A DNA stretch of 64,000 nt. It comes from Aulosira sp. ZfuVER01. GTDB taxonomy: Bacteria > Cyanobacteriota > Cyanobacteriia > Cyanobacteriales > Nostocaceae. The position numbers and the translations under genes are program-made. The notes beneath the pieces were generated by a model, which was given only the letters and a program-made list of their open reading frames with translations, did no database searches and was not told the DNA's origin. Location: the NCBI GenBank assembly GCA_034530615.2, contig JAVRCV020000068.1, positions 79,393 through 143,392 of the forward strand, read 5' to 3'. Shown piece after piece: positions 16,217-23,860 of this stretch (position 1 is the first letter of the stretch; each line of letters starts with the position of its first letter).

Positions 16217-16855
16217 TTACAAATATAAGGATTGAACAGCCAGATCCTTTAAGGTAATGGTAAAGTTACGCTGCTCTTGTGTAGCAATGAATGCGATAGT
16301 TGCCTCACACGCCACAGCAACAGTTAACATCACCAAATTTCGCGCTAGAGGATAATCACAGACATCATCATTGACATCAGAAGGAACGCGATAAACATCA
16401 TTCCAAATTACTTCTGCATAATCGGCTGCTAGTCCAACATGAAGGCAGGGAATTTTTGAACGATCGGCATAATCTTTCACTGCTTGACGTGACAAGCTGT
16501 TGTCAAAAACATCAATAATTAACTGGCTATCTTGAAGTAGTTGATCTGCATTTGCTGATGTCAACTCCTTTGTTTTGGCATCAACTTTAGTACCAATTGC
16601 TCGGTATAAATTATTTGCTAGGATTTTCGCCTTAATTGCTCCAACATCGGAACGGTAGTAAGGCTGGGTAGAAAGGTTACGTTCCTCAATGCGATCGCGA
16701 TCGATTACCGTAAGTTTATCAAAACCAGACCGAGCCAAGTTTTCTGCAATGTTAGCTCCTAACGCTCCAGCCCCACAAATGGTTATAGGATAATTCTTGA
16801 GCTTTGCCATCACAGCATTGCTGCGGTAAAGCTGTTCGTGAAAAAAAATACTCAT
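16217..16855 (-). CDS. ThiF/E1-like adenylyltransferase
   Basis: GAGALG, DRDRIEERNLSTQ, KAK, DVFDN motifs. Start placed at MSIFF, 5 nt after the upstream stop. Confidence 0.9.
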   Translation of the reverse strand: MSIFFHEQLYRSNAVMAKLKNYPITICGAGALGANIAENLARSGFDKLTVIDRDRIEERNLSTQPYYRSDVGAIKAKILANNLYRAIGTKVDAKTKELTSANADQLLQDSQLIIDVFDNSLSRQAVKDYADRSKIPCLHVGLAADYAEVIWNDVYRVPSDVNDDVCDYPLARNLVMLTVAVACEATIAFIATQEQRNFTITLKDLAVQSLYL

Positions 16856-16860
16856 TGTCC

Positions 16861-17694
16861 TTACCACTCTTGTTGTTCCATCACAGCCACTAAAGATTGC
16901 AAATCAAAATCGCGATCGCGTCCACTCAAGCAAATCCCAGAACTAATTACAGTCAAATCAGATTTAGCGATCGCACTAGTGTGGCGAACACCATCAGCCG
17001 TTCTCCAATCCACTGTCCAGTAATCACCGCGATCGTGAAATTGGCGTAATTCACCGCCACCCATTCGCAATGCTTTTCTTAGCCGTTTTTCATCCTGTTG
17101 CGGTTGTGCAAATCCCTCAATCCGCTGAGTTGCTAATTCATACAATGTCCGGATTTCTGGAGTAATCCCTTTGAACTGTAATTCCTCAGCAGGAGTCAGT
17201 TGCTTAACAGCAGATTGCAGAGTTTCCACAATTGCTGGATCGGTACGGCGATCGATTTCCTCAAACCAGCAGGATTGTCCATTCCAACGAGCGATAACTT
17301 GCTCAAAAACAACACCCTCAGTTACTAGATGTACTGCGATCGGTTTGACTACCTTCAACCGTTGACGCATATCTACTTCATTCACAGGATATGCTAACCA
17401 AGTTTGTCCTCGCAGTTGGTGTGCTAATCTCAGCCGTATTTGGGGAAAGTGTTGCAAGTATTCTGCAATTTGGGGTAAGTCTGCTTCTTCCACAACTGTT
17501 GCTGTCTTCGTATCGACTGGCTGAAAGATACCCCAACCTTCAAATTGATTATGCTTTGGCGTAAAGGTGTAAACCATCCCAGCTACTCGTGTGCGAACTC
17601 GTCCACCTTTGACACAAGGGGCGATAAATTGAGTTGCACACAACTGTGCTTCTGCACTAGCAATTTGGTTGATTAGCTTACGGATGTCAGTCAT
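16861..17694 (-). CDS. Hypothetical protein, C-terminal SGICLSG (possible E2-like Cys)
   Basis: 277-aa ORF tightly coupled to the ThiF gene; family not recognised. Confidence 0.75.
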   Translation of the reverse strand: MTDIRKLINQIASAEAQLCATQFIAPCVKGGRVRTRVAGMVYTFTPKHNQFEGWGIFQPVDTKTATVVEEADLPQIAEYLQHFPQIRLRLAHQLRGQTWLAYPVNEVDMRQRLKVVKPIAVHLVTEGVVFEQVIARWNGQSCWFEEIDRRTDPAIVETLQSAVKQLTPAEELQFKGITPEIRTLYELATQRIEGFAQPQQDEKRLRKALRMGGGELRQFHDRGDYWTVDWRTADGVRHTSAIAKSDLTVISSGICLSGRDRDFDLQSLVAVMEQQEW

Positions 17695-17765
17695 AGCTCA
17701 CGCATAGACGCAAAGAGGATGTTTATACGTCAATTCAGCAAAGTTAGAGAATTTATATAATTATT

Positions 17766-17975
17766 TCCCGCGTGCAAGTTGGTGGAGCATTGCGTGTTCT
17801 CAGTTACTAGGGGGACTCCGCTGGTGAGTTGTTACACACTCTTTCAAAGATGGCTACTTTTAAGCCCATTTTCCAGGTTCTTCGCACTCCCCGTTCACAC
17901 ACGCCCACTGTATTTGACAGTGTTACTTTTCCTCTCGTACTAGTATGTAGGCTCCAAGAGTTAGGGCACGCAGGA
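17766..17975 (-). ncRNA. Scaffold RNA A: carries sarcin-ricin-loop mimic and 23S H42-44 mimic
   Basis: Terminal stem UCCUGCGUGC/GCACGCGGGA; CCUAAC/AACUU loop; CUAGUACGAGAGGA at 17943-17930; 56-nt GTPase-centre-like segment at 17876-17821. Confidence 0.85.
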
Positions 17976-17979
17976 TATT

Positions 17980-18006
17980 TATATAATACAACATACTACA
18001 AAAAAT
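17980..18006 (-). promoter_or_regulatory. Candidate promoter/operator (TGTAGTAT + TGTATTAT) for RNA A
   Basis: Minus strand reads TTTTGTAGTATGTTGTATTATATAAAT just before RNA A; the same motif occurs at 23809-23857. Confidence 0.45.
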
Positions 18007-18178
18007 AAATACCAGAGATTAAAAGAGATATGTTGCAGTAGTGCGATCACTGCCGCTTCATATACCTACTTCATTTCGCTCATCAATATCAACTCCTTAA
18101 GTTGAGCGATCATCCGAATTAGAAAACATAACTTTATTTATGCTACAACAAGTTACATATGTATTAATGAATTAGGTT

Positions 18179-23055: not shown

Positions 23056-23068
23056 ATGATTAGGCGTA

Positions 23069-23269
23069 TTAACCATAAACAGCTTCAGGCCGAACAATCA
23101 AGTCGCCACTAGGACGGCGATCAACTATGTAAGCAGAAAGGCGATCGCTATTTACATCTAAATGTCGAGCAACCTGCTCCTTCACTGCTAGATCATTCAT
23201 ACCTGCTGCAATTCCTAGTTGTGTTTCTGCCACATCAACAGAACGTCCTTCAAATCGAATATGAATCAT
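23069..23269 (-). CDS. Small ubiquitin-like (beta-grasp) protein, C-terminal Gly
   Basis: 66 aa from MIHIRFEG with GAGGTG SD; beta-beta-alpha-beta pattern ending [10 protein letters not shown]; same locus as ThiF. Confidence 0.65.
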
Positions 23270-23339
23270 TGCTATCACCTCTTTTTAAATTACGAATGGC
23301 TTTCTTAATTTTGAATTTTGAATTTTGAATTGGGATTAG

Positions 23340-23548
23340 TGGATCTGATCGGGATTGAACCGATACCCTCCCTGTGAGAGTTGCACTCACACCTCATGCG
23401 AGTTGAAAAAGCTGTGGTAACACACGCAGGAATCGCACCTGCACTTATCGTTTAAAAAGCGATCGCTCTACTATTGAGCAAGTATGTAAGCTTCTTCTGT
23501 TAGGGCACAAGTGAAATCCGGGATCTCTACCGTTAGAGCTACAGACCC
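23340..23548 (-). ncRNA. tRNA-like shell with its anticodon loop replaced by scaffold RNA F
   Basis: Acceptor GGGUCUG/CAGAUCC-A, D arm GCUC-UAACGGUA-GAGA, T arm AUCGG-UUCAAUC-CCGAU. Confidence 0.75.
23393..23511 (-). ncRNA. Scaffold RNA F: tRNA-Lys(UUU)-like cloverleaf cargo
   Basis: CUUGUGC/GCAUGAG stem, CCUAAC/AACUC; D arm GCUC-AAUAGUA-GAGC; anticodon loop UUUUUAA; T arm GCAGG-UGCGAUU-CCUGC; internal ACCA. Confidence 0.8.
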
Positions 23549-23611
23549 AAGTTTGCATGATTGCTCTGCTCTGATTGCAGTCATTGCAACTTCAATCAAA
23601 GTCAAAGCAAG

Positions 23612-23692
23612 TGGAGCCGTCGGGAATTGAACCCGACTCCTGCAACCGTCCGTTTGTTGGTTTCGGAGCAGTCGAACGCCAATCGCGGCCCC
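23612..23692 (-). ncRNA. Minimal tmRNA tRNA-like domain (no tag ORF)
   Basis: GGGGCCG..UGGCGUUCGAC 5' end; GGAGUCGGG-UUCAAUU-CCCGA-CGGCUCC-A 3' end; G3.U70; stemless D loop. Confidence 0.75.
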
Positions 23693-23807
23693 AAAAGTGG
23701 GCAGTGCCTATGAGAGTTGTTAAGCTTCACTCTCAAACAGTGGCATCTATGCAGTTGTCACAGTTATGAGAGGTTGTAGTTTTGCCTCTTGAGGAGGCTT
23801 TTTTGTT

Positions 23808-23860
23808 GATACTACATTTGTAATACAAAAGCTACATGATGTCAAGGGGATACTACAAAA
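23808..23860 (-). promoter_or_regulatory. Candidate promoter/operator of the RNA-array operon
   Basis: TTGACA at 23845-23840 flanked by two TGTAGTATC copies (23857-23849, 23816-23808); -10 assignment uncertain. Confidence 0.45.

Follow-up and report, generated by a model that had tools for sequence, protein, structure and literature searches.

A candidate Ro60/Y-RNA-type locus in a cyanobacterium combines RNAs resembling tRNA, tmRNA and 23S rRNA sites with a putative ubiquitin-like/E1 pair

The features of the locus, which lies in a 64-kb window (the whole stretch of DNA that was analysed), are listed in Table 1. The first-pass annotation had placed these elements in a single minus-strand run; all of them were found at the positions given there, but the run is broken by a plus-strand 455-aa ORF, which has a GC content of 0.30 (vs. 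0.42–0.50) and occurs in one of 80 related loci. No defence island or prophage was found around the locus, which is flanked by ordinary chromosomal genes. A canonical Rsr recognised by the Pfam TROVE model is encoded in this genome as well, with three Y RNAs of its own.

Table 1. Positions and identity of the features at the locus (window coordinates)
Feature	Position	Strand	Basis or content
ThiF-family E1-like adenylating enzyme, 216 aa, minimal form	16217-16867	-	PF00899, E 1.7e-27
p277, conserved 277-aa ORF	16861-17694	-	3' end overlaps ThiF start
RNA A	17767-17974	-	scaffold + sarcin-ricin-loop word + hairpin + H42-44-like three-way junction
455-aa ORF	18179-19546	+	AT-rich insertion
Putative divergent Ro60/TROVE-vWA protein, 476 aa	19611-21041	-	Ro60 structure matches
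RNA B	21101-21176	-	scaffold + short hairpin only
L7/L12 extra copy	21302-21682	-	TIGR00855, 105.5 bits
RNA C	21734-21859	-	scaffold + cloverleaf tRNA look-alike, anticodon UAA
p239, basic 239-aa accessory protein	21867-22586	-	ORF
RNA D	22718-22859	-	scaffold + YrlA-like permuted tRNA module
RNA E	22874-23058	-	scaffold + 23S H69-71-like segment + further hairpins
Ubl-like small protein, 66 aa, C-terminal Gly	23069-23269	-	beta-grasp model
Outer tRNA-like shell (acceptor, D arm, T arm) around RNA F	23339-23548	-	read from sequence
RNA F	23391-23513	-	scaffold + cloverleaf, anticodon UUU
Mini tmRNA tRNA-like domain (TLD) without message part	23609-23692	-	RF00023, 43.8 bits

The vWA protein is identified by profile and structure matches as a divergent Ro60/TROVE homologue, in agreement with the TROVE-like character first assigned to it. 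In a single-sequence search residues 25–394 match the PDB entries 9l5y/9kop, named TROVE domain-containing protein (E 9e-5), and the comparison with Ro60 that the first-pass annotation had proposed was positive, with the family profile matching the Ro60 structures 9nen (E 8.2e-15) and 1yvp (E 1.4e-11) as well as Rsr (2nvo, E 2.8e-7). The MIDAS is intact, with Asp-300, Ser-302, Ser-304, Thr-362, and Asp-386 invariant. In contrast to canonical Rsr, the protein goes unrecognised by the Pfam TROVE model. Conservation is unusually high, at 75–97% identity across families, and the identities are out of step with taxonomy (75% within the order, yet 89% for a different family of the class). Such conservation is unlike that of the usual arms-race proteins and is counted, together with the missing Pfam match, against the bait or tether explanation preferred below.

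Neither p277 nor p239 matched any family in Pfam, NCBIfam, PADLOC, or PHROG. There are 1309 homologues of p277, and none of the 120 listed has an informative name or Pfam domain; its model is poor (pLDDT 47.6). The neighbours of p239, which is present in 62 of the 80 loci, fall into unnamed clusters of the ESM Atlas, many with viral members. The L7/L12 copy, found in 28 of the 80 loci, clears the TIGR00855 cut-off (105.5 vs. 84.4 bits) and is 51% identical to the housekeeping L7/L12, which is encoded on contig C48 next to the only L10 gene of the genome.

RNAs A to F align with 23 invariant columns, every one of them in the two flanks, and all six adopt a common fold comprised of a terminal stem, a conserved, asymmetric internal loop, and a second stem. 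The Y-RNA-like end-paired stem that had been proposed for all six is borne out by covariation. In a set of 42 cyanobacterial RNAs covering all head types, pairing is seen in 91.9% of the cells, compared with 33–49% when the partners are slid; 14 of the 17 scaffold pairs show double changes, and the observed values are attained in none of 500 shuffles. The 5' 8-mer of the scaffold has five exact copies in the window, all inside the minus-strand run, and a loose scaffold descriptor has six matches in the window, all at the locus. Over the 80 loci the descriptor matches the vWA strand 352 times and the opposite strand once. A covariance model (R1) built solely from 13 cyanobacterial B-type RNAs, with no phage sequences, recovers three phage RNAs at 44.3, 35.3, and 34.8 bits, from a phage whose vWA protein is 48% identical. 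None of the Rfam Y-RNA models matches the scaffold stems, and the Ro60-contact motifs given in the excerpts of PMC4201824, GNCGAAN0-1G for bacteria and GGUCCGA for vertebrates, are absent from the scaffold; both results are counted against the same explanation.

The array might instead lie near the vWA gene by chance, being made up of ordinary tRNA genes or pseudogenes with processing stems, or of a dispersed repeat or a miniature mobile element with inverted ends that mimic a stem. This would agree with the two tRNAs called by ARAGORN and Rfam, with the lack of enrichment in the window of each short scaffold motif by itself, and with the 38 descriptor matches in the whole 8.03-Mb genome, 32 of which are scattered away from the six clustered at the locus. 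The compensatory changes, the strand bias, the recovery of the phage scaffold by a model holding no phage sequence, and the absence of any tRNA from RNAs A, B, and E argue against it, as do the fixed order and length of the elements across the 80 loci and the co-occurrence of RNA and vWA protein across genomes described below. This explanation is already disfavoured, and we consider it highly improbable.

The heads carried between the flanks had been described as look-alikes of tRNA, tmRNA, and 23S rRNA sites, a description upheld by matches to the tRNA and tmRNA models and to 23S rRNA. RNA A matches the 23S sarcin-ricin-loop word at 13/13 letters and contains a 70-nt stretch 73% identical to positions 1057–1126 of a Nostoc 23S, and its consensus fold has 11 compensatory pairs over 16 sequences; it is present in 60 of the 80 loci and also in three others (L115, L119, and L128). 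RNA E, present in 44 of the 80 loci, contains 26 nt that are 88% identical to 23S positions 1841–1866, and its core recurs in the E-type RNAs of two further loci (L120 and L127) and in a phage locus. The earlier reading took this head as H67-71, but likeness to rRNA is shown for these 26 nt and not across that whole region; the helix names used here (H42-44, H69-71) are our presumed assignments, taken from 23S position rather than from a tool. mRNA leaders are known to mimic rRNA in order to bind ribosomal proteins for autoregulation. RNA A resembles them in that a short RNA copies an rRNA protein- or factor-binding site, and its locus often holds the extra L7/L12 gene; in contrast to such leaders it is free-standing and scaffolded rather than the leader of a ribosomal-protein operon, and it joins two distant 23S sites in one molecule.

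RNAs C and F both contain tRNA-like calls by ARAGORN, at 21760-21834 with anticodon taa and at 23415-23488 with anticodon ttt (48.6 and 51.1 bits, respectively, with the Rfam tRNA model; fold z -3.45 and -1.61 for the whole RNAs). The acceptor-like stem of RNA C belongs to the scaffold and lacks a free 3' end. RNA F is positioned at the anticodon-arm place of the outer tRNA-like shell, the halves of which are conserved in 71 and 76 of the 80 loci. In the nested tRNA look-alikes the variability is centred on the hypervariable anticodon loops, with D and T arms near invariant, and the commonest anticodon is the stop anticodon CUA (45/140), with UUA and UCA also occurring. RNA D has a T arm, a closed acceptor-like hairpin, and a D arm (fold z -5.05); it matches the YrlA model over positions 30–81 only, the tRNA-like part, at 23.1 bits (E 0.25, gathering score 69). 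The tmRNA-TLD-like element, present in 52 of the 80 loci, scores just under the RF00023 gathering score of 47 (E 5.5e-15), and the genuine tmRNA is encoded at a different place in the genome. RNA B had been called empty, but it carries a hairpin of ~20 nt (fold z -3.04). It scores 96 bits with R1, stops 60 nt short of the vWA start codon on its upstream side, and is present in 76 of the 80 loci, mostly ~60–130 nt upstream of the match start (at 10001). This placement suggests a possible autoregulatory leader, through which the vWA protein might repress its own synthesis.

Across the 80 Nostocales loci the elements run in the order TLD, F, Ubl, E, D, p239, C, (L12), B, vWA, A, p277, ThiF, with ThiF itself present in 69 of them. 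The order of Ubl, RNA array, vWA, p277, and ThiF is also kept in divergent cyanobacteria and in two phage contigs, and in 14 of 14 divergent loci the Ubl gene is adjacent to vWA. The system is patchy among cyanobacteria. The co-occurrence test proposed in the first-pass annotation was positive: vWA and p277 are each found in 47 of 401 genomes of the phylum and together in 46 of the 48 that have either, even where the two are unlinked, and R1 matches in 13 of 151 genomes include all 11 that have vWA. In two phage contigs, representing very large phage genomes, scaffold RNAs accompany Ubl, vWA, p277, a JAB-like gene, and ThiF (51% and 42% identity), and one phage Ubl has one residue beyond the Gly.

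The 66-aa ORF and ThiF look like a Ubl/E1 pair, as previously suggested, on the basis of an invariant C-terminal Gly, a beta-grasp model, and predicted docking. The C-terminal RPEAVYG of the Ubl is invariant in 14 of 14 sequences, and the best structural neighbours of its model (pLDDT 87.9) are beta-grasp proteins (Z 4.3–5.5), with Foldseek E values of 0.2 or worse. These values give modest rather than full support for the fold, which is counted against the explanation preferred below. The predicted Ubl–ThiF complex scored 0.80, compared with 0.30 for the best control, and reached a mark that was attained in 116 of 157 cases by solved complexes and in 2 of 215 by mismatched pairs, a pass that may mirror likeness to solved structures because E1–Ubl complexes have already been solved. 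At least 97% of the contacts are shared between runs, with a partner pLDDT of at least 91, and the Ubl tail (60–66) is predicted to contact ThiF residues 32, 34–37, and 120–124 in the E1-like active site. Prokaryotic Ubl conjugation operons comprise a Ubl, a ThiF-type E1, an E2, and a JAB protein, and ThiS/MoaD with ThiF/MoeB form sulfur-carrier pairs. The present module shares with Ubl operons the beta-grasp protein with terminal Gly and the ThiF-family adenylating enzyme, and the phage versions share the JAB-like peptidase and, in one case, a Ubl with a post-Gly residue. It differs from them in that no E2 was recognised, the E1 is minimal, and the module appears to go with an RNP instead of a cofactor pathway or a known anti-phage system. 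There is no JAB gene in the window. Of the PADLOC E1-E2 models ThiF matches the E1 part alone, and PADLOC recognised no known defence family at the locus beyond the E1 domain; this limited recognition, the lack of a recognised E2 and of a JAB gene in the window, the absence of any family match for p277, and the ordinary chromosomal neighbours are also counted against the preferred explanation.

The locus very probably encodes a Ro/Y-type RNP with mimic heads. As in the Rsr/YrlA/YrlB systems of Salmonella, Mycobacterium smegmatis, and Deinococcus (RF02553), a TROVE-vWA gene adjoins several small RNAs, whose paired 5' and 3' ends are the presumed protein-binding stem and which carry a tRNA-like module opposite, and RNA D has the layout of T arm, closed acceptor, and D arm seen in YrlA. 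In contrast to these systems, the scaffold has a motif other than GNCGAAN0-1G, a single locus can hold up to six or seven RNAs, some of the heads are complete cloverleaves or copies of 23S rRNA sites, and the locus is obligately linked to Ubl, E1, and p277, not to RtcB/RtcA. According to the excerpts of PMC4201824, bacterial Y RNAs are encoded upstream of the Rsr gene, a Y RNA tethers Rsr to PNPase, and YrlA is a substrate of tRNA enzymes, with RNase P and CCA addition named. The best single-sequence structural relative of the vWA protein, Ro60 of the Thermus phage phiLo (9KOP, 9L5Y), is described in the excerpts of PMC12135203 as binding two Y-like RNAs, Yrl1 and Yrl2, encoded just upstream of its gene, and as forming complexes with host PNPase, the capture of which is the function proposed there. 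The phage-borne versions and the RNAs directly upstream of the gene are common to both, but the phiLo system has two RNAs, those excerpts mention no rRNA-like head, and the words 'ubiquitin' and 'tRNA-like' are absent from the paper. Searches of Rfam and the literature found no family and no paper covering TROVE-vWA, mimic RNAs, and Ubl/E1 together, consistent with the novelty first claimed, and such a combination of mimic-head RNAs with a Ubl tagging module would be an unreported and surprising elaboration of known Ro60/Y-RNA particles.

The best explanation overall, held with evenly balanced confidence, is a modular RNP of the Ro60/Y-RNA kind that shows translation-machinery look-alikes as baits or tethers. 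The vWA protein would bind the common scaffold in the way that Ro60 binds the stem of Y RNAs, and the heads would draw to the ring proteins with an affinity for tRNA, tmRNA, or the ribosomal factor-binding site, whether attackers (RNases, ribotoxins) or host factors. The E1 would adenylate the C-terminal Gly of the Ubl, leading to its attachment to a component or a captured partner, and the JAB peptidase of the phages may process or remove it. That the job of the RNP is such bait or tether display coupled to Ubl attachment has, in our estimate, an even chance of being correct.

A classical Ro60-type platform for RNA quality control or repair, which we regard as rather unlikely, would use the heads to recruit housekeeping enzymes to the ring (exoribonucleases, RNase P, the CCA-adding enzyme, modification enzymes, and ribosomal proteins), such that damaged tRNA or rRNA is degraded, trimmed, or remade; the Ubl/E1 pair would then regulate the particle or be a sulfur carrier. 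The Rsr–Y RNA–PNPase machine, the handling of YrlA by tRNA enzymes (both in the excerpts of PMC4201824), the PNPase complexes of phage Ro60 (in those of PMC12135203), the very high vWA conservation, and the ordinary genomic neighbours all agree with such a platform, and the variable anticodon loops with near-invariant D and T arms fit recognition of tRNA shape, not identity. However, genes for an RNA ligase, kinase, cyclase, or nuclease are missing from the conserved set, a canonical Rsr with its Y RNAs is already present in the genome, and the platform gives no reason for replicas of rRNA sites or for a Ubl with a JAB peptidase.

RNase toxins, ribotoxins, and site-binding antibiotics attack sites of the kind copied by the heads. 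In a sharpened form of the idea in the first-pass annotation, the heads would be purely sacrificial copies that soak up these attackers, or sentinels whose cut ends are exposed, sensed by the ring, and reported through the Ubl. The choice of heads (ribosome factor-binding sites, tRNA anticodon arms, and the tmRNA TLD), the focus of variability on the anticodon loops, and the patchy occurrence, shared with very large phages and with identities not following taxonomy, may reflect such a conflict. Nevertheless, there is no effector gene, the locus lies outside any defence island, PADLOC recognised only the E1 domain, and the look-alikes with the anticodons CUA, UUA, or UCA correspond to no ordinary host tRNA; this explanation is judged unlikely. 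A simple decoy for anticodon nucleases fits badly with hypervariable anticodons of which a stop anticodon is the commonest; these freely varying anticodons are easier to reconcile with a tether indifferent to the anticodon than with a decoy aimed at a single anticodon nuclease.

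The minus-strand locus very probably encodes a particle of the Ro60/Y-RNA type, in which look-alikes of the translation machinery are mounted interchangeably on a single handle for protein binding. Its putative protein component is the 476-aa vWA protein, which the first-pass annotation had described as TROVE-like; both profile and single-sequence searches bear this out, finding homology to TROVE (a HEAT-repeat ring) together with the vWA architecture of Ro60. A family profile of 45 members matches Ro60 9nen (E 8.2e-15, profile positions 138–418), the phage TROVE protein 9l5y (E 2.3e-13, positions 24–393), Ro60 1yvp (E 1.4e-11), and Deinococcus Rsr (E 2.8e-7), and with the single sequence as query the structure of the Ro60 homologue from Thermus phage phiLo is matched over residues 25–394 (E 9e-5). 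The phiLo protein is reported to bind two Y-like RNAs encoded just 5′ of its own gene (PMC12135203). The MIDAS is intact, with D300, S302, S304, T362, and D386 invariant in the 45 sequences. Pfam recognizes the vWA part only of the 476-aa protein; the TROVE model PF05731 gave no match to it at E ≤ 0.01, and the sole match to this model in the source genome (8.03 Mb assembled in 83 contigs) is another gene, located on contig C15. This gene encodes a canonical Rsr and is preceded by three tandem tRNA-like RNAs, in each of which the anticodon arm is swapped for a hairpin with GACGAA, a motif of the published GNCGAA type. Two Ro-type systems, each with its own RNA handle, therefore coexist in one genome. 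The coordinates of the features are collected in the table.

Table. Positions of the features described, in the window or in the named locus
Feature	Sequence	Position	Strand	Basis
Genes of the locus: ThiF, p277 (277-aa ORF, overlaps ThiF), vWA (476 aa), L7/L12, p239 (239-aa ORF), Ubl (66-aa ORF)	window	16217–23860	−	
Mini TLD (tmRNA tRNA-like domain)	window	23609–23692	−	
Outer tRNA-like shell	window	23339–23548	−	
455-aa ORF	window	18179–19546	+	
Flanking ORFs	window	14302–15997; 24055–25058		
MoxR/DUF58/transglutaminase-like row	window	8973–13303	−	
Two giant proteins and PAS histidine kinase	window	31633–44712	−	
Canonical Rsr, 534 aa	contig C15 of the source genome, locus L133	6432–8036	−	PF05731
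Three tandem tRNA-like RNAs 5′ of canonical Rsr	locus L133	8075–8585	−	
Additional head type	locus L125	4739–4863	−	
Additional head type	locus L126	2463–2586	+	
Circularly permuted scaffolds	phage locus L129	5780–8100; 9930–9975		
Decayed locus L131	genome G060, contig C1	5782000–5801500		

The six RNAs of the locus, A–F, can be aligned with one another in their flanks only, where 23 columns are invariant. All six adopt a common fold comprised of a 9–10-bp terminal stem, an asymmetric internal loop, a 6–9-bp second stem, and a variable head, with fold z-scores of −1.6 to −5.1. The two sides of the internal loop read CCYRAY and AACUUG. The folds and the covariation both display a feature of Y RNAs and YrlA, namely a long stem in which the two ends of the RNA pair with each other and which contains an internal loop. 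The 17 pairs of the scaffold are 91.9% paired across 42 cyanobacterial RNAs covering every head type, compared with 33–49% for slid partners, and double changes are found in 14 of the 17. None of 500 shuffles reached the observed covariation values, although this control overstates the case because the sequences are related, and the slid-partner control is the fairer one. The 5′ strand of the scaffold is GYGCCCYRAYC-like. The Ro60-contact motifs given in PMC4201824 are GNCGAAN0-1G for bacteria and GGUCCGA for vertebrates, and neither is present in the scaffold of the six window RNAs. Whereas the RNAs of the canonical Rsr locus carry GACGAA, the window RNAs have a different handle. No Rfam family matches the scaffold; the gathering thresholds of Y RNA (RF00019) and YrlA (RF02553) were not reached, with no Y_RNA match at all.

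All five exact copies of the 5′ 8-mer of the scaffold in the window lie inside the locus on the minus strand. Short scaffold motifs with one mismatch allowed are by themselves not enriched in the window. A loose descriptor recovers exactly A–F in the window and 32 further matches scattered over the genome, and clustering therefore weighs more than the bare motif. In 80 related Nostocales loci the descriptor matches 352 times on the strand of the vWA gene and once on the opposite strand. The covariance model R1, trained on 13 cyanobacterial B-type RNAs and no phage sequence, scored long-head RNAs poorly with filters off, but a genome search with it nonetheless recovered C and F. A scan for promoters and terminators returned counts not above those of shuffles.

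The heads of A and E resemble functional sites of 23S rRNA, for which the Nostoc carneum record served as reference, the 23S rRNA of the source genome being absent from the assembly. RNA A contains the 13-nt sarcin-ricin-loop word unchanged and a 70-nt stretch with 73% identity to positions 1057–1126; we take these regions to be helix 95 and helices 42–44. The consensus fold of 16 A-type RNAs is a three-way junction with two hairpins, in which 11 pairs are maintained through double changes. In RNA E, 26 nt show 88% identity to positions 1841–1866, presumably the helix 69–71 region, and the remainder of the RNA gave no alignment to the same reference. RNA D is laid out like YrlA, T and D arms included, and its weak YrlA match (23.1 bits, gathering threshold 69) covers the tRNA-like part only. 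The head of RNA B is a short hairpin. A further head type of ~105 nt sits on the same scaffold in two other loci (L125 and L126); it is not tRNA-like, has no match to the heads of A or E, and corresponds to no known RNA site that we recognised.

RNAs C and F score 48.6 and 51.1 bits against the tRNA model, and ARAGORN calls both tRNA. They are probably not functional tRNA genes, given that their acceptor strands continue into the scaffold and that the anticodon is their most variable part. In 95 loci (L003–L082 and L115–L129), ARAGORN made 140 calls of nested tRNA look-alikes with 28 different anticodons, most commonly CUA (amber, 45 calls), with UUA called three times and UCA once. Among 64 F-type and 58 C-type unique sequences, variation is highest in the anticodon loop, the D arm, T arm, and scaffold being nearly fixed. 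By implication, some of what is counted as "tRNA genes" in such genomes belongs to scaffold RNAs. RNA F is inserted at the anticodon position of an outer tRNA-like shell in the upstream part of the locus. The mini tmRNA element matches the tmRNA model in the two halves of the TLD only, with 24 nt replacing 316 model positions (43.8 bits, gathering threshold 47). It was rejected as a tmRNA, since the message part is missing and a genuine tmRNA with tag is encoded elsewhere in the genome. In the acceptor stems of both the mini TLD and the outer shell, the third pair is G-U. A G-U pair at this position is the identity mark of alanine, and to read it so in the two elements is our own interpretation.

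The arrangement is conserved in the 80 Nostocales loci, whose vWA proteins are 91–97% identical to that of the window. The order is TLD, outer shell with F, Ubl, E, D, p239, C, L12 (the extra L7/L12, where present), B, vWA, A, p277, and ThiF. Contig ends truncate several of these loci, and in the 80 the individual parts were found in the following numbers: Ubl 76, p277 70, ThiF 69, p239 62, and L12 28 for the genes; A 60, B 76, C 76, D 69, E 44, F 76, and TLD 52 for the RNAs. In an even sample of 401 genomes of the phylum, vWA is patchily distributed, with identities that do not track taxonomy; it occurs in 47 genomes and p277 likewise in 47, of which 46 are vWA genomes, some of these matches being fragments. 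The co-occurrence of the two holds even where megabases separate the genes or each is on a contig of its own. In divergent loci, Ubl adjoins the RNA array and vWA in all 14, with p277 and ThiF nearby in only four. The proposed check of whether the scaffold RNAs accompany the vWA gene came out in favor of the association, as R1 matched 13 of 151 genomes, among them every one of the 11 that bear vWA. One of the two R1-positive genomes with no vWA match has a decayed locus, and the other match lies on a 5.4-kb contig of a genome whose bases were only partly included in the search. What is left of the decayed locus (L131) is p239, an intact B-type RNA (R1 86 bits), and a piece of C, with no vWA, Ubl, p277, or ThiF in the 19.5 kb examined. 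Distant representatives also served as queries in two metagenome scans, neither of which gave a match.

The C-terminus of Ubl, RPEAVYG followed by the stop codon, is invariant in 14 of 14 sequences; the phage copies end in FG in L129 and in FGK, with one extra residue after the glycine, in L130. The model of Ubl (pLDDT 87.9) has the order strand-strand-helix-strand-strand. Its best 50 structural neighbours are mostly ubiquitin-type and other beta-grasp proteins, but with Z values of just 4.3–5.5, and its Foldseek matches have E values of 0.2 or worse. ThiF is a PF00899 adenylation domain. The predicted complex of Ubl and ThiF scores 0.80 against 0.30 for the best control, a value that indicates likeness and is not a demonstration of binding, as E1-Ubl complexes have already been solved; the 0.80 mark is attained by 116 of 157 solved complexes but just 2 of 215 mismatched pairs. 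At least 97% of contacts recur between runs, the partner pLDDT is at least 91, and the Ubl tail is placed against the nucleotide-binding loop of ThiF. The E1-like ThiF enzyme is predicted from this model to bind the Ubl tail, and the prediction may mirror the solved look-alikes. No E2 was recognised in any locus, and no JAB among the scanned ORFs of the window. A JAB-like gene is positioned between p277 and ThiF in both phage loci, with a Prok-JAB score of 32.3 bits in L129, above the cut-off of 25, and a sub-threshold 22.7 bits in L130.

Locus L129 belongs to LR756511.1, a 595-kb uncultured phage genome that carries Ubl, vWA, p277, and ThiF in the order of the window, with identities to the window copies of 33, 48, 34, and 51%, respectively. 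At least nine scaffold RNAs lie 5′ of its vWA gene. Three of them are detected by R1 at 34.8–44.3 bits, although the model was trained on cyanobacterial sequences only, and one RNA has an H69–71-like core as in E. Some of the phage scaffolds are circularly permuted, a tetraloop capping the terminal stem while the ends of the RNA lie in a tRNA-like shell; the order within the permuted hairpin is 3′ motif, tetraloop, 5′ motif. One such closed hairpin is found directly 5′ of the vWA ribosome-binding site. In cyanobacteria, RNA B is located just 5′ of the vWA start codon, at 60 nt in the window. These two placements suggest that the vWA protein may repress its own synthesis. A 131-kb IMG/VR contig (L130) has the same genes, with a vWA protein of 42% identity and a diverged scaffold. 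Viral scans with protein P0124 and with the L130 protein gave no additional locus.

Conservation of Ro60 and its Y RNAs extends from bacteria to humans, yet the variable part of Y RNAs has no settled purpose. In the system described here the handle stays fixed and this part is replaced by recognisable copies of tRNA, of tmRNA, and of two 23S rRNA functional centres, which makes the idea of Y RNAs as tethers or baits directly testable, as each head predicts partners. The reading we favor overall, and to which we give roughly an even chance, is that the heads are displayed as baits or tethers and that this display is coupled to Ubl attachment. Within the bait-or-tether reading, a role in conflict, as decoy or sentinel, and the classical quality-control role of Ro60 fit about equally. 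The freely varying anticodons and the very high conservation of the proteins lean toward shape-specific tethering, and a conflict role is favored by the connection to phages, the patchy distribution, and the fact that the copied sites are much attacked. An RNA-built guard-type sensor or counter-sensor, combining displayed replicas, Ubl attachment as output, reversal by JAB, and exchange as one cassette, appears rather unlikely to us. In such a sensor, a Ro60-like ring would hold the common handle and thereby display replicas of the most attacked translation sites, which would be the 23S rRNA factor-binding centre, helix 69, the anticodon arms of tRNAs, and the acceptor of tmRNA. Covalent attachment of Ubl by the dedicated E1 would follow once a replica is attacked or has captured a protein, JAB would reverse this attachment in phages, and very large phages and filamentous cyanobacteria would swap the system as one cassette.

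We place the system in a known kind, Ro60/Y-RNA, and its new parts are the heads derived from rRNA sites, the multi-RNA array, the distinct handle, and the linkage to Ubl, E1 (in places with JAB), and p277. The whole cassette appears to move between very large phages and cyanobacteria. A full-text literature search, with some relevant reviews outside its coverage, returned no paper on this arrangement, and the literature searched contained no earlier instance of a Ro60-like particle tied to ubiquitin-like tagging. The nearest mention is in an Asgard-virus preprint, which lists ThiF-like genes and a gene for Ro60 in a single virus and leaves them unconnected.

The L7/L12 protein of the locus has a family score of 105.5 (cut-off 84.4). 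Its gene is not beside rplJ, and the rplJ-rplL pair is located on contig C48, indicating that it is an extra paralogue and not the housekeeping rplL. For p277, no family was found in four libraries, nothing usable in the ESM Atlas, and no match among PDB sequences (best E 0.15); the model is poor and the fold search produced no standing match (best Z 5.7). No family was found for p239, which falls in unnamed, partly viral clusters of the ESM Atlas and has one weak match to a Myxococcus phage. The 455-aa ORF between the vWA gene and RNA A was rejected as part of the system. It is present in 1 of the 80 related loci and has a GC content of 0.30 compared with 0.42–0.50 in its flanks, which points to an insertion, and it looks like a recently acquired gene; its weak matches are to ATP-grasp_4 (E 0.0095) and phrog_28161 (E 4.4e-7). 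The ORFs flanking the locus, found in at most two of the 80 loci, were likewise rejected. Elsewhere in the window, a MoxR-type AAA+ ATPase, a DUF58 protein, and a transglutaminase-like protein form an ordinary-looking operon that is not kept beside the system in other loci. Two giant proteins of 1826 and 1988 aa, with a PAS histidine kinase between them, each contain a Ser/Thr kinase, an AAA_16 ATPase, GAF domains, and a histidine-kinase output.
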